UHGV virus genome: UHGV-0132372
From: a virus
DNA length: 36,038 nt
Reading direction: 5' to 3' (one strand)
The notes below the pieces were generated by a model. It was not told the origin of the DNA and made no database searches. It saw only the letters and a list, made by a program, of their open reading frames with translations. Shown here piece after piece: positions 9,732 through 28,552 of the stretch (position 1 is the stretch's first letter; the number at the start of each line of letters is the position of its first letter). A program made the position numbers and the translations under genes.

Positions 9732-9752
9732 CTGCTTTCTATGGAGTTAATT

Positions 9753-10553
9753 ATGGCAAAAAAACCTACACCAGACCAGGTAAAAAAGATTCGTTCCGGC
9801 ATTACCAAGAAAATACGGTTTGAGGTTTTCAAGCGCGATGGCTTCAAATGCCAGTACTGTGGGAGTTCTGCGCCAGACGTCATCCTTCATGTCGACCATA
9901 TCAACCCAGTTAGCAAGGGTGGCGATAACGACATGATGAACCTTATTACTTCTTGCGATAGTTGTAATGGCGGGAAAAGCGACAAACTGCTCAGCGATAA
10001 CTCAATAATGGAAAAGCAAAGGCAGCAACTCCAGGAACTTAATACCAAGCGAGAGCAACTGGAGATGATGATCAAGTGGCGAGATGGTCTTAAGAGCCTG
10101 AAAGACGATGTTGTTGATATTGTCGCTACCAAAATTGACGACTGCATTGCGCCATTTACTGTTAATGACAATGGGCGAAAATCTATCAAGAGATGGCTTC
10201 GAATATATAAGCTTGAAGAAATCCTCGATGCGATTGAGATTGCTGCAGACAAAAAACTCACCCAAGAAATAACCCATGAGCTTACTGGTGAATTCTTTGA
10301 GTACATCCCTCGCATAGCAGCGACAAAAAGAAAACCGCCAAAAGAACAAAGGATTCTATACATCAGAGGAATCCTTAAAAACCGCATATATATCAATCAA
10401 AACCATGTAATGAGTTATCTCAAGGCATGGCTTTCATACGACTTAGATCTCGATGAACTTACTGAGTTTGCGAAAACAGTACCTAACTGGACAACGTTCA
10501 AGGAGTGGGTATCTGAACGCATTCGTGAAGCTCAGGAAGAACTCCCGTACTAA
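9753..10553 (+). CDS. HNH endonuclease-domain protein (N-terminal HNH, unknown C-terminal domain)
   Basis: Motif FKCQYCGSSAPDVILHVDHINPVSKGGDNDMMNLITSCDSCN; GGAG RBS before the ATG at 9753 (alternative ATG at 9741); sits where lambda has the start of O. Confidence 0.65.
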   Translation: MAKKPTPDQVKKIRSGITKKIRFEVFKRDGFKCQYCGSSAPDVILHVDHINPVSKGGDNDMMNLITSCDSCNGGKSDKLLSDNSIMEKQRQQLQELNTKREQLEMMIKWRDGLKSLKDDVVDIVATKIDDCIAPFTVNDNGRKSIKRWLRIYKLEEILDAIEIAADKKLTQEITHELTGEFFEYIPRIAATKRKPPKEQRILYIRGILKNRIYINQNHVMSYLKAWLSYDLDLDELTEFAKTVPNWTTFKEWVSERIREAQEELPY

Positions 10554-13521: not shown

Positions 13522-13704
13522 ATGAGACGACAGCGACGAAGCATCACCGACATCATCTGCGAAAACTGCAAATACCTTCCAACGAAACGCTCCAGAAATA
13601 AACGCAAGCCAATCCCAAAAGAATCTGACGTAAAAACCTTCAACTACACGGCTCACCTGTGGGATATCCGGTGGCTTAGAGAACGTGCGAGGAAAACAAG
13701 GTGA
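13522..13704 (+). CDS. ninE: NinE
   Basis: [23 protein letters not shown]...[13 protein letters not shown] matches lambda NinE; AGGAGGT RBS. Confidence 0.8.
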
Positions 13705-13871
13705 TTGACCAAAATCGAAGTTACGAACAAGAAAGCGTCGAGCGAGCTTTAACGTGCGCTAACTGCGGTCAGAAGCTGCATGTGCTGGAAGTTCACGTGT
13801 GTGAGCACTGCTGCGCAGAACTGATGAGCGATCCGAATAGCTCAATGTACGAGGAAGAAGACGATGAGTGA
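13701..13871 (+). CDS. ninF: NinF (GTG start)
   Basis: Not in the ORF track (56 aa); [49 protein letters not shown] matches lambda NinF; GTGA overlap with the ninE stop. Confidence 0.7.
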
Positions 13872-14373
13872 TGTTAAAGAAAAAGATATCCCCGGCTTTG
13901 AGGGTATATATAAAGTAACTGAAAATGGAGACATCATTTCATGCCGTAAATCAAAAAAATTATCTCATGGCATTAAACCAGGAGGATATGCATTTGTCGG
14001 TCTGTATCCAGGTGGCGGGAAAAGACCATCATATAAAATGGTTCACAGAATTGTTGCAGAAGTATTTATTGATAACCCAGATGGCAAACCGGAAGTTAAT
14101 CACAAGGATGGAAATAAACTTAATAATAAAGTTGAAAATCTTGAGTGGGTAACGCGAACAGAAAATGCGAAACATGGATTTGATTCCGGATTGCTTGTTC
14201 ATGGGTTTAATCATCACTTCTGCAAACTAACGCCAGAACAAGTGAAATCAATATATAAATCAAAAGGCAAATACAGAGATATAGCCAAAGAATTTGGTGT
14301 TTGTGCGCAGACAGTGTGCAACATAAAAAACAAATCAGCGTACCGACGTTTTTTGGAGGGGATTGATGTTTAG
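13864..14373 (+). CDS. HNH homing endonuclease (NUMOD4/HNH_3-type) inserted in the nin region
   Basis: IPGFEGIYKVTENG...VHRIVAEVF...NHKDGNKLNNKVENLEWVTRTEN; AT-rich compared with its flanks; paralogous to 26602..27186. Confidence 0.8.
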   Translation: MSDVKEKDIPGFEGIYKVTENGDIISCRKSKKLSHGIKPGGYAFVGLYPGGGKRPSYKMVHRIVAEVFIDNPDGKPEVNHKDGNKLNNKVENLEWVTRTENAKHGFDSGLLVHGFNHHFCKLTPEQVKSIYKSKGKYRDIAKEFGVCAQTVCNIKNKSAYRRFLEGIDV

Positions 14374-14641
14374 AAGCAAAAAATGGCTTCAGGCAGTCAG
14401 GGATATTGAATTTTGCGTTCTTTGCGGAAGATACGGAGTTCAGGCCGCTCATAGAAATGAAGGGAAGGGGGTTGGGATTAAAGTAGATGATTGCCTTACT
14501 GCTGCGCTATGTGTTGATTGTCATTCAAGAATTGATAATGGGAGAGATATGAGCAGGGAAGAGCGAAGGGCTGAAATGGATCGGGCCATTGTGCTTACCC
14601 TTAAAAAATTGGTTAACAATGGGAGGGTGTTTGTCCAATGA
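14366..14641 (+). CDS. YbcO-like (DUF1364) Cys/His-rich putative nuclease
   Basis: CVLCG...AHRNEG...CLTAALCVDCH motif; position immediately upstream of rusA, as in DLP12-type prophages. Confidence 0.55.
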   Translation: MFRSKKWLQAVRDIEFCVLCGRYGVQAAHRNEGKGVGIKVDDCLTAALCVDCHSRIDNGRDMSREERRAEMDRAIVLTLKKLVNNGRVFVQ

Positions 14642-15000
14642 ACGAATATCAGTTTGTGCTTCCATACCCGCCGTCGGTGAACACCTACTGGCGAAGACGG
14701 GGAAGCCAATACTACATCAGCGATAAAGGCCAGAAATACCGAAAAGATGTACAGCAAATAATCCGCCAACTCAAGTTAGACATTTTCACCAAATCACGAC
14801 TCCGCATCAAAGTCATCGCAGACGTTCCAGACTCCCGCCGCCGCGACCTCGACAACATCCTGAAGGGTTTACTCGACTCCCTTATCCACGCCGGATTTGC
14901 GGAAGACGACGAGCAATTCGATGAAATTCGCGTAATTCGTGGTGTGAAAGTACCAGGCGGACGGCTTGGAATAAAAATCACTGAACTGGAGAACGTATGA
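14638..15000 (+). CDS. rusA: RusA Holliday-junction resolvase
   Basis: LPYPPSVNTYWRRRG...VPDSRRRDLDNILKGLLDSL...GGRL matches RusA family motifs including the catalytic Asp cluster. Confidence 0.9.
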   Translation: MNEYQFVLPYPPSVNTYWRRRGSQYYISDKGQKYRKDVQQIIRQLKLDIFTKSRLRIKVIADVPDSRRRDLDNILKGLLDSLIHAGFAEDDEQFDEIRVIRGVKVPGGRLGIKITELENV

Positions 15001-26460: not shown

Positions 26461-26565
26461 ATGCCGATTCAGCAACTTCCGCTTATGAAAGGTGTCGGCA
26501 AAGACTTTCGAAACGCCGACTATATCGACTATCTGCCAGTGAATATGTTGGCAATTTTGATATAA
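26461..26565 (+). pseudogene. truncated 5' remnant of gene 10 (34 codons) upstream of the HNH insertion
   Basis: AGGTGA RBS; [31 protein letters not shown] then stop; same peptide as the start of the intact gene 10 at 27134 but with diverged codons. Confidence 0.6.
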
Positions 26566-26601
26566 TAAGTACATGAAAAATCGAAACTTTAAGGAGTAGA
26601 T

Positions 26602-27186
26602 ATGCTTTCTGAGAATGCTAAAGATATACCTGGATTTGAAGGTGTTTATGCCGTAACAGAAGATGGCAGGGTGCATTCTCACTCACGTGTTGTTAAGGCT
26701 GCGCATGGCAGCACGCAACTCAGAAAGGGGCGCTGGTTAAAGCCTAAAATAAATCAGGGAAGGGTGCTTTATAATATCGGAGCAAAATGGACTTTTGCCC
26801 ATCGAATCGTTGCAATGACATTCCTGCCAAATCCTGAAAACAAGCCTCAGGTAAATCATATTGATGGCAATCCACTCAATAATAACGTCAATAATCTTGA
26901 GTGGTGCACTCAAAGCGAAAACATCAAACATGCATACGCCACAGGATTAAAGAAACCAATCAAGTTTTTCGGAACCAAGCACCCAAAACACAAGTTGAGT
27001 GATGACGATGTTCTTGCAATCAAGTCATCAAAAGAAAGCTTGTCAGTAATTGCGGCTAAGTACGGGATATCTAAGACCTGGGCAAGTAGGCTAAAGCGTG
27101 ATGCTAACTGGGTTCATATAAAGGTTGATTCCAATGGCAATACAACAACTACCACTAATGAAGGGATTAGGGAAAAGTGCGGTTAA
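26602..27186 (+). CDS. HNH homing endonuclease (NUMOD4/HNH_3 with C-terminal HTH-like region)
   Basis: IPGFEGVYAVTEDG...AHRIVAMTF...NHIDGNPLNNNVNNLEWCTQSEN; AT-rich; 3' end overlaps the gene 10 start. Confidence 0.8.
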   Translation: MLSENAKDIPGFEGVYAVTEDGRVHSHSRVVKAAHGSTQLRKGRWLKPKINQGRVLYNIGAKWTFAHRIVAMTFLPNPENKPQVNHIDGNPLNNNVNNLEWCTQSENIKHAYATGLKKPIKFFGTKHPKHKLSDDDVLAIKSSKESLSVIAAKYGISKTWASRLKRDANWVHIKVDSNGNTTTTTNEGIREKCG

Positions 27187-28552
27187 TGCTGATTATATAG
27201 ACCAACTTCCAGTCAATCTTTTAGCTACGCCCAAGGAGGTGTTGAATTCATCGGGATATCTTCGCTCATTTCCGGGCATTGCCAAACGCTCTGATGTGAA
27301 CGGCGTATCTCGCGGAGTCGAGTACAACATGGCGCAGAATGCTGTTTATCGCGTGTGTGGTGGCAAACTGTACAAAGGAGAAAGTGAAGTCGGTGACGTC
27401 GCCGGAAGTGGTCGCGTATCAATGGCGCATGGTCGGACATCTCAGGCTGTAGGCGTTAATGGTCAACTGGTCGAGTATCGCTATGATGGCACGGTTAAAA
27501 CCGTCTCAAACTGGCCTACAGACAGCGGATTCACGCAGTATGAGTTAGGTTCGGTTCGTGACATTACTCGCTTACGTGGGCGTTATGCGTGGTCAAAAGA
27601 CGGTACTGATTCATGGTTCATCACTGACCCTGAAGACGAATCGCATCCTGACCGCTACAGTGCACAATATCGTGCAGAATCGCAGCCGGACGGCATCATC
27701 GGCATCGGAACATGGCGAGACTTCATCGTCTGCTTTGGTTCATCGACGATTGAATATTTCTCCCTGACTGGTGCAACCACCGTTGGTGCTGCTTTGTATG
27801 TCGCACAGCCATCGTTGATGGTGCAGAAAGGCATTGCAGGAACCTACTGCAAAACGCAGTTTTCTGATTCGTATGCGTTCATCAGCAATCCGGCAACAGG
27901 TGCGCCGTCTGTTTACATCATCGGATCCGGTCAGGTGTCACCAATCGCCAGCGCGAGCATTGAGAAAATCCTCCGCTCCTACACCGCGGATGAACTGGCT
28001 GATGGCGTGATGGAGTCTCTGCGATTTGATGCGCATGAACTGCTGATTATCCATCTTCCGCGCCATGTCCTCGTGTACGACGCATCTTCAAGCGCCAATG
28101 GTCCGCAATGGTGCGTACTGAAAACAGGACTGTATGACGATGTGTACCGCGCTATCGACTTCATTTACGAAGGCAATCAGATAACGTGCGGCGATAAGCT
28201 GGAATCCGTGACCGGGAAATTGCAGTTCGATATCAGCAGCCAGTACGACAAGCAGCAGGAACACCTGCTGTTTACTCCGTTGTTCAAAGCGGATAACGCC
28301 AGAGTGTTCGACCTTGAGGTTGAGTCGTCAACTGGCGTTGCGCAGTATGCTGACCGCCTGTTCCTCTCTGCAACCACTGACGGCATCAATTACGGACGTG
28401 AGCAGATGATTGAGCAGAATGAACCGTTCGTTTACGACAAACGCGTTTTGTGGAAGCGAGTCGGGCGCATCAGGAAAAATGTCGGCTTCAAATTGCGCGT
28501 TATCACGAAGTCACCTGTCACTCTTTCTGGCTGCCAGATAAGGATTGAGTAA
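27134..28552 (+). CDS. tail hub / head-completion protein (P22 gp10-like)
   Basis: Long collinear similarity to P22 gp10 as recalled (…[27 protein letters not shown]…SGCQIR.E); ATG at 27134 (the ORF track starts at TTG 27125). Confidence 0.85.

Follow-up and report, generated by a model that had tools for sequence, protein, structure and literature searches.

What is a gene for a 169-amino-acid (aa) HNH protein doing between ninF and rusA in the nin region of the virus genome UHGV-0132372? The whole stretch of DNA that was analyzed (36,038 nucleotides [nt], one strand) is designated the “window”, and the gene is designated HNH-A. The original prediction, made from the letters alone, described HNH-A as a homing endonuclease gene wedged between ninF and a YbcO-like gene and paralogous to a second such gene at 26602..27186 (HNH-B). 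Homing endonuclease genes are selfish elements that insert copies of themselves into the genomes of related viruses. We favor, at a probability of approximately 70%, the reading of HNH-A as a free-standing gene for an I-HmuI-type homing endonuclease that would spread by the homing mechanism set out below. Coordinates of all features are collected in Table 1.

Assignment of HNH-A to its family was made by comparing profiles, sequences and structures. HNH-A scored 29.2 bits against NUMOD4 (PF07463; Pfam cut-off 23.4) and 42.2 bits against HNH_3 (PF13392; cut-off 24.8), and the corresponding values for HNH-B were 34.1 and 41.7 bits. Both proteins belong to phrog_59 (E about 1e-51; listed as E=8e-51 for HNH-A) and both were matched by the “homing endonuclease” model of PADLOC (E=1e-24 and E=3e-16, respectively). 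No NCBIfam family was found for HNH-A, HNH-B or the small protein encoded directly downstream of HNH-A. I-HmuI (1U3E) was matched to residues 6-121 of HNH-A by phmmer (E=9e-19). An AlphaFold (AF2) model of HNH-A, derived from 52 homologues, had a mean predicted local distance difference test (pLDDT) value of 94.2, and 1u3e_M was its sole significant match in the PDB when searched with Foldseek (E=5.5e-10; next match, E=0.11). Because this match spans 164 columns of the 169 aa, the C-terminal helices of HNH-A also appear to be I-HmuI-like. The template modeling (TM) score against 1u3e was only 0.58, which is expected for an extended multi-domain protein modeled without DNA.

The HNH motif proved to be intact rather than degenerate. 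The residues of N79-H80...N92...N101...H104 are the consensus in 120 to 122 of 122 homologues, and H61 is also conserved. H80, N92 and N101 align with H75, N87 and N96 of I-HmuI, and HNH-B has the same residues. Asn stands at the position equivalent to the I-HmuI metal ligand Asp74 in 122 of 122 homologues; the substitution is thus a trait of the family and not decay. HNH-A encodes an intact single-chain enzyme composed of an N-terminal NUMOD4 beta-sheet, an HNH (beta-beta-alpha-metal) core and C-terminal helices, as in I-HmuI.

The start of HNH-A overlaps the stop of ninF by 8 nt (ATGAGTGA), and its 3′ end overlaps the next open reading frame (ORF; 14363/14366..14641), whose start codon falls within HNH-A. 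NinB, NinE and NinF are encoded upstream, and the 92-aa protein, RusA, NinH and Q are encoded downstream. The AT-richness ascribed to HNH-A was borne out by a GC content of 0.367, versus 0.497 for ninF, 0.49 for rusA and 0.478 for the whole window. No Rfam family, group I introns included, reached its gathering score in the whole window, and none matched at E<=1 around HNH-A or HNH-B. Because no intron was found and the ORF overlaps its neighbors, HNH-A is considered free-standing. Phages often carry I-HmuI-like genes of the free-standing sort, so only the intron-borne subtype is excluded. A consensus scan for dedicated promoters turned up nothing around HNH-B and a single weak match within HNH-A, both below shuffle expectation, and the only terminator candidate was a weak hairpin at the gene-10 junction. 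HNH-A shares the orientation of ninF and the small gene within the early-right (nin) cluster and overlaps both, and neither a promoter nor a terminator was matched nearby, which suggests translational coupling.

Both HNH-A and HNH-B were found to be polymorphic for presence or absence at one defined site in otherwise similar genomes. Of the 462 phage records whose nin DNA matches the window, only two contain HNH-A DNA, at 100% identity in each case. These are the records of Dewey and Louie, which are Lederbergvirus isolates (PMC11990801). It was also detected in 34 of the 1743 E. coli genomes with matching flanking nin DNA (drawn from 5426 complete E. coli genomes), where 33 copies are intact and one is deleted. 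Fixed presence at this exact position across the phage family, which would have argued against a mobile gene, was thus not observed. E. coli AH19B041 (locus L009) and a contig from IMG/VR (L086) carry an identical in-frame deletion of 330 nt (window 14025-14354), which leaves a 59-aa ORF containing NUMOD4 only (L009 1015-1194). Such a deletion looks like the decay typical of homing elements.

The unit that varies is larger than HNH-A. In HK620, HK75 and mEpX1, identity to the window is ~96% through ninF to position 13877 and resumes at 98% at the rusA ATG, position 14638 (blastn and alignment of the left junction). The slot between these points holds roi and hkbD (a DUF1364/YbcO gene) in the three phages and HNH-A plus the 92-aa gene in the window. 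Because homology stops at the ninF stop and restarts at the rusA ATG, the exchanged unit is HNH-A plus the 92-aa gene, and by these alignments the two genes appear to behave as one cassette. HNH-A does overlap both neighbors, as had been claimed, but it is not an isolated insert wedged between them; a two-gene block has been swapped relative to the nearest HNH-free nin regions. Note that the ATGAGTGA stop/start overlap with ninF is also used by roi in HK620-type phages.

The small partner protein falls in phrog_131, which is annotated as HNH endonuclease (E=6e-31). It scored 18.9 bits against PF07102 (YbcO), below the curated cut-off of 29.9, and sub-threshold matches to YbcO and DUF968 were given by 20 and 16 of the 21 members of its family, respectively. 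Comparison with HkbD of HK620 by hhalign gave a probability of 95.4% (E=2e-8). These profile matches indicate that the small protein is a remote homologue of HkbD/YbcO, encoded in the same slot upstream of rusA. No solved structure was significantly matched by the sequence of the 92-aa protein. In annotation, the “HNH endonuclease” label on this gene is best kept separate from enzymes of the homing type.

The small gene is not tied to HNH-A. The allele present in the window was found in 37 E. coli genomes, in 34 of which HNH-A lies directly upstream (33 intact, one deleted); in the other three, a different ninF allele abuts the small gene and there is no HNH-A. All 20 IMG/VR contigs with this allele carry HNH-A, one (L086) as the deleted copy. 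When 140 small-gene loci (60 species genomes and 80 viral contigs) were scanned over an upstream span of -60 to +300 nt, an HNH gene was found upstream in 22 and none was found in 118. In enterobacterial loci that lack HNH, the small gene begins within the 3′ end of a NinF-family gene. Because it is widespread and mostly HNH-free, the small gene is taken to be an ordinary nin gene and HNH to be its occasional, site-faithful companion. Across the loci compared, a homing endonuclease gene and its home would be expected to show just such a pattern.

Relatives of HNH-A that are 60-73% identical were found in E. coli, Salmonella, Klebsiella aerogenes, Citrobacter koseri, Superficieibacter and two further contigs, all in lambdoid nin regions. 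Their upstream genes vary (an 81-aa or 100-aa ORF, a 658-aa DNA methylase or DUF1367), as do those farther downstream (RusA or Q). Directly downstream of every one of them, and overlapping it, lies a small-gene homologue of 91 aa, such that the pair has been kept in eight diverged lineages. The two genes diverge roughly in parallel across lineages. For HNH-A in the eight lineages, non-synonymous divergence is 0.12-0.29 and synonymous divergence is saturated (0.72-0.92); for the two genes together, non-synonymous divergence is 0.03-0.29, again with saturated synonymous sites, which points to long-term purifying selection on both. Relatives at 55-59% identity (loci L162/L163 and L164) lie directly upstream of a RecA_dep_nuc-family gene or between YbcO and RusA, and the HNH-A clade as a whole stays beside small nin-region nucleases. 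One E. coli prophage contig (L014) also carries a second, different HNH_3 gene (1996-2544) approximately 450 base pairs (bp) upstream of an hkbD′-HNH-small cassette in the same nin region.

Some of these loci hint at the target of HNH-A. In E. coli QML220601 and an IMG/VR contig (L096), roi is kept and is followed by 28 nt of the hkbD 5′ end, 23 nt of the ninF tail and HNH-A. The HNH ORF of the P0003 lineage is an in-frame fusion with hkbD nt 1-44, which have 91% nt identity to hkbD of HK620. An hkbD-like N-terminal peptide, xxLRKxARGRECxV, is present in five of the eight lineages. Joints would recur within the first 28-44 nt of hkbD if breaks were made there. By this comparison, the HNH-A target may lie within the first 30-45 nt of a resident hkbD/YbcO-type gene, with the small gene perhaps standing in for hkbD as a diverged version that resists cleavage. 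Alternatively, HNH-A could target HNH-free alleles of the small gene. HNH-A relatives at several loci (L013/L014 3001-3045, L006 1741-1790, L034, L100 and L161) open with the first 15-17 codons of hkbD/DUF1364 (MANLRKEARGRECQV...), which, together with the QML220601 locus, suggests that joints have formed repeatedly at the 5′ end of hkbD.

The homing mechanism that we propose for HNH-A is as follows. When the phage encounters a lambdoid relative, phage or prophage, without the cassette, HNH-A would bind a long asymmetric site and would nick or cut it using a divalent metal ion. The break would be repaired by recombination, for which NinB and RusA would be phage-supplied, with the cassette-bearing genome as template and with ninF and rusA as homology arms. 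The outcome would be conversion of roi and hkbD to HNH-A and the small gene.

Table 1. Features of the window discussed in the text.
Feature	Position	Strand	Description	Basis
HNH-A	13864..14373	+	169 aa, ATG start; free-standing I-HmuI-like endonuclease gene	ORF list
HNH-A domain order			NUMOD4, HNH_3, C-terminal helical/helix-turn-helix region	Pfam, fold model
ninF	13701..13871	+	conserved left flank	Pfam NinF, alignment
rusA	14638..15000	+	conserved right flank	Pfam RusA
Two-gene block without counterpart in HK620/HK75/mEpX1	13878..14637	+	fills slot of roi and hkbD	blastn
Small gene	14366..14641	+	91/92 aa, CxxC...AH...CxxCH; divergent YbcO/HkbD-superfamily member; constant partner downstream of HNH-A clade	
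HNH-B	26602..27186	+	194 aa; second I-HmuI-like endonuclease gene, between genes 4 and 10	
Gene-10 remnant	26461..26552	+	first 92 nt, matching CUS-3 gene 10 at 100%; reading frame ends in stops after 34 codons	
673-bp insert versus HNH-free P22-like phages	26553..27225	+	leader, HNH-B and replacement gene-10 nt 1-92; GC 0.403	
Working gene 10	27134..28552	+	head-completion protein; diverged 5′ end	
Third HNH protein	9741..10553	+	270 aa; alternative ATG at 9753; between cII and replication genes	

HNH-B, which sits 92 nt inside gene 10, carries the clearer insertion scar. Identity between CUS-3 and the window is 99.4% across gene 4 and on to nt 92 of gene 10, and homology ends at 26552. What follows is an insert whose last part is a second copy of the gene-10 5′ end, and the last 53 nt of HNH-B overlap the start of the working gene. 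Relative to HNH-free alleles, the working gene 10 is 64-65% identical over nt 1-92, 78-84% over nt 93-184 and mostly 89-99% over the remainder, a gradient of 65%, 79% and ~95%, whereas HNH-free phages are 93-99% identical among themselves over the first 92 nt. The replacement 5′ end carries 15 synonymous and seven non-synonymous codon changes in 30 codons. It adjoins HNH-B in all 12 IMG/VR contigs that were informative, in which at least two gene-4 alleles precede it, and is also present in Salmonella phage UPF_BP1; in 14 IMG/VR contigs there was no case of the diverged 5′ end without HNH-B. HNH-B was found in one of 124 matching phage records and in 18 of 909 E. coli genomes, one of which (ES5) has a disrupted copy. 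Its nearest relatives are those of UPF_BP1 (98%) and HZ41 (54%). The 92-nt stub should not be annotated as a gene. Its end (window 26534-26553) is an imperfect hairpin, TGCCAGTGAATATGTTGGCA, after which the insert has produced a stretch rich in T; the hairpin could be a weak terminator or part of a recognition site.

The claim that HNH-A and HNH-B share one motif architecture was upheld: the proteins are 39% identical over 173 columns (E=3e-28), with the IPGFEG, HRIVA, NH.DGN.LNN, NLEW and EN blocks all aligned. The term “paralogous” holds only in the sense of membership in the same family. HNH-A is 40-44% identical to genes of Bacillus, Staphylococcus and T5-like phages, approximately the same as to HNH-B, and the HNH core has DNA-level similarity to Lactococcus phage genes. 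Recent duplication within the genome was rejected because identity is only 39% and each gene has closer or equally close relatives elsewhere. By these comparisons HNH-A and HNH-B are independent acquisitions, HNH-B probably being a second element of the same kind. Searching the window with all three HNH proteins (tblastn) gave no additional copies. Both elements occur together in E. coli MS 115-1 and ET729 and in no record of the phage collection. The MS 115-1 prophage (NZ_CP146665.1, about 3.227-3.240 Mb) closely matches the window, and IMG/VR contig IMGVR_UViG_3300045988_016961 (L087/L169) is 99.9-100% identical to the window over the stretches compared.

Taken together, the two elements allow a tentative generalization, which we put forward as a possibility somewhat more doubtful than not. 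They may exemplify a general, undescribed way for a free-standing endonuclease to reside inside a gene with neither intron nor intein, in which a 5′ stub of the target that ends at the cut site is followed by the endonuclease gene and a diverged, cut-resistant replacement. In further rounds of homing the stub would provide homology on the left side, and the point at which it ends would show where cleavage occurs. The replacement may be the gene-10 5′ end for HNH-B and a whole small target gene for the HNH-A clade, with the small YbcO-like gene standing in for hkbD. If this layout is correct, cut sites would be at approximately nt 92 of gene 10 and approximately nt 28-44 of hkbD.

Several points weigh against homing by HNH-A, and some of them would suit a different account in which HNH-A is an inactive or immobile relic moved by ordinary recombination of nin modules. 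Lambdoid nin regions are mosaic and have joints at gene boundaries even without nucleases, such that ordinary module exchange could give clean edges and a patchy distribution. The slot after ninF holds alternative genes (roi, with NinX and methylases nearby). HNH-A alleles are 98-100% identical and lie within a larger conserved ninF′-HNH-small-rusA-ninH block. The recent breakpoints among HNH-A loci lie within ninF (13729) or at the boundary with Q (15186) and not at the cassette edges, so that a larger module seems to have been inherited in the recent spread. A truly isogenic empty site, with the same ninF allele running straight into the small gene, was not found among the E. coli or IMG/VR loci. 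We nevertheless regard the relic account as quite unlikely, given the intact motif, the confident model and an ORF that is complete in 33 of 34 E. coli genomes; purifying selection extends over deep divergence, joints are seen repeatedly within the first 28-44 nt of hkbD, and HNH-B provides a parallel, much clearer insertion scar. The case for homing is also weakened by the Asn at the Asp74 position, with which the chemistry may differ in detail, and by the nicking activity of I-HmuI, since conversion driven by a nick is assumed here. It would also be simpler to regard the small gene as the home gene than to place the target in hkbD. Everything beyond family membership, for HNH-A and its close relatives alike, comes from comparison of sequences. 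Among HNH-A loci, the ninE/ninF junction (window 13695-13729) is a second variable slot, in which inserts of 0.4-1 kb differ by genome (NinX, a cytosine methyltransferase and others).

Could the pair instead be kept for the benefit of the phage? Possible benefits include marker exclusion of competing lambdoid phages or prophages, attack on satellites, and recombinogenic nicks that feed NinB and RusA. Long-term purifying selection on both genes, with synonymous sites saturated, would fit such domestication, as would the stable position of the HNH clade beside nin recombination and nuclease genes (the small YbcO-like gene, RecA_dep_nuc, YbcO and RusA). Expressed Skunavirus I-HmuI-like HNH genes gave marker exclusion (PMC12724721), and a homing endonuclease of the T4 family is reported to aid immune evasion (PMC13096335). 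We consider domestication unlikely: a prevalence of only ~2% of comparable loci and the decayed copies speak against a strongly useful function, and marker exclusion is itself a homing phenotype, so that this account overlaps the favored one instead of replacing it. Overlapping frames that suggest translational coupling, invariable adjacency in eight lineages with roughly parallel divergence, and the nuclease-like CxxC...H...CxxCH pattern of the small protein could also be read as a two-protein nuclease, in which HNH-A (as a nickase) and the small Cys/His protein each act on one strand or one of them confers specificity or immunity on the other. This is very unlikely indeed, because the 118 small-gene loci without HNH imply that the small protein works alone, more distant HNH relatives adjoin other genes, and I-HmuI is known to act alone.

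Two other roles were considered and rejected. An HNH protein of the packaging type (HK97 gp74), a PF01844 protein encoded beside the terminase genes of a cos phage, does not fit, since HNH-A lies between ninF and rusA, HNH-B lies between genes 4 and 10, and both carry HNH_3 and not PF01844. The head genes of the window are P22-like, and P22-like phages package by the headful mechanism, not by cos cutting. A component of anti-phage defense was also rejected, since the sole PADLOC models matched by HNH-A and HNH-B were of the “homing endonuclease” type and the third, 270-aa HNH protein gave generic HNH-domain matches.

That third HNH-domain gene, whose presence was confirmed, is unrelated to HNH-A and HNH-B and belongs to a different HNH family. 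Its product (phrog_16986, E=1e-151) has a classical PF01844 HNH domain at residues 37-81 (E=1e-13) and approximately 180 aa of no assigned function. Full-length homologues are present in Pseudomonas and Vibrio phages at 36-52% identity, and the gene heads a replication module that is common as a block to Louie, Dewey and one Stx1a phage. The 270-aa protein was also considered as a fusion to the ORF preceding the related replication genes in HK639; the two have no similarity, and the HK639 ORF is unrelated. Comparison of domains, homologues and context gave no evidence of homing for this gene. The original interpretation was thus partly supported: HNH-A and HNH-B look homing-type and are sporadic. 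It is not unusual to find three HNH genes in ~36 kb: lactococcal Skunavirus genomes have one to eight each, with many truncated remnants (PMC12724721), and the P22-like phage SEN22 was reported to have four mobile-element insertions (PMC5261728).

The closest characterized enzyme is I-HmuI of Bacillus phage SPO1 (1U3E), which resembles HNH-A in size (174 versus 169 aa), in domain order and in the His general base and two Asn of H-N-N. It differs in residing in a group I intron of a DNA polymerase gene, whereas no intron was detected for HNH-A or HNH-B, in having the metal ligand Asp74 where HNH-A has Asn, and in being only ~29% identical. The free-standing endonucleases SegF, SegB and MobE of T4-type phages, for which T4 is the experimental model of intronless homing (PMC2790892, PMC2988022), are similar in their placement between or beside conserved genes, with the target presumed to be in the neighbor gene of endonuclease-free relatives, in co-conversion of flanking DNA, and in adjacent sequence differences that are presumed to give self-immunity (PMC2790892, PMC2330249, PMC2988022). 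In contrast to HNH-A, Seg enzymes are GIY-YIG proteins and MobE has a different HNH architecture. Cleavage and marker exclusion have been demonstrated by experiment for those enzymes, whereas the temperate lambdoid/P22-like case is known here from sequence comparison alone. Homing endonuclease genes cluster beside or within essential genes (PMC10448857). The I-HmuI-like HNH genes of Skunavirus are likewise free-standing and variable in number and position, are frequently truncated to remnants and cluster by insertion site; they differ in hosts and insertion sites, and the sections consulted describe no linked replacement gene or target remnant (PMC12724721). The split nrd gene cited in PMC10448857 resembles HNH-B in that an essential gene is interrupted without an intron or intein. 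There the result is two separate polypeptides, whereas here a second, diverged 92-nt copy restores full-length gene 10 and the original 5′ end is a dead remnant.

A literature search for homing endonucleases in lambdoid nin regions or in P22 gene 10 returned only passing mentions in genome papers. HNH-A and HNH-B appear, by comparison, to be further free-standing I-HmuI-like genes, here in temperate lambdoid/P22-like phages; modestly new are the constant two-gene cassette and the layout of stub, endonuclease and diverged replacement. The gene-10 arrangement illustrates a way for an essential gene to tolerate such an insert. The biology of homing endonucleases comes mostly from large virulent phages (T4, SPO1 and ICP1), and no experimental case was found for temperate lambdoid/P22-like phages. 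The two elements have precisely defined locations, the E. coli phages involved are amenable to genetics, and the relatives Dewey and Louie exist as isolates. Lambdoid mosaicism is usually ascribed to undirected recombination; HNH-A and HNH-B, if active, would be nuclease-driven contributors to it.

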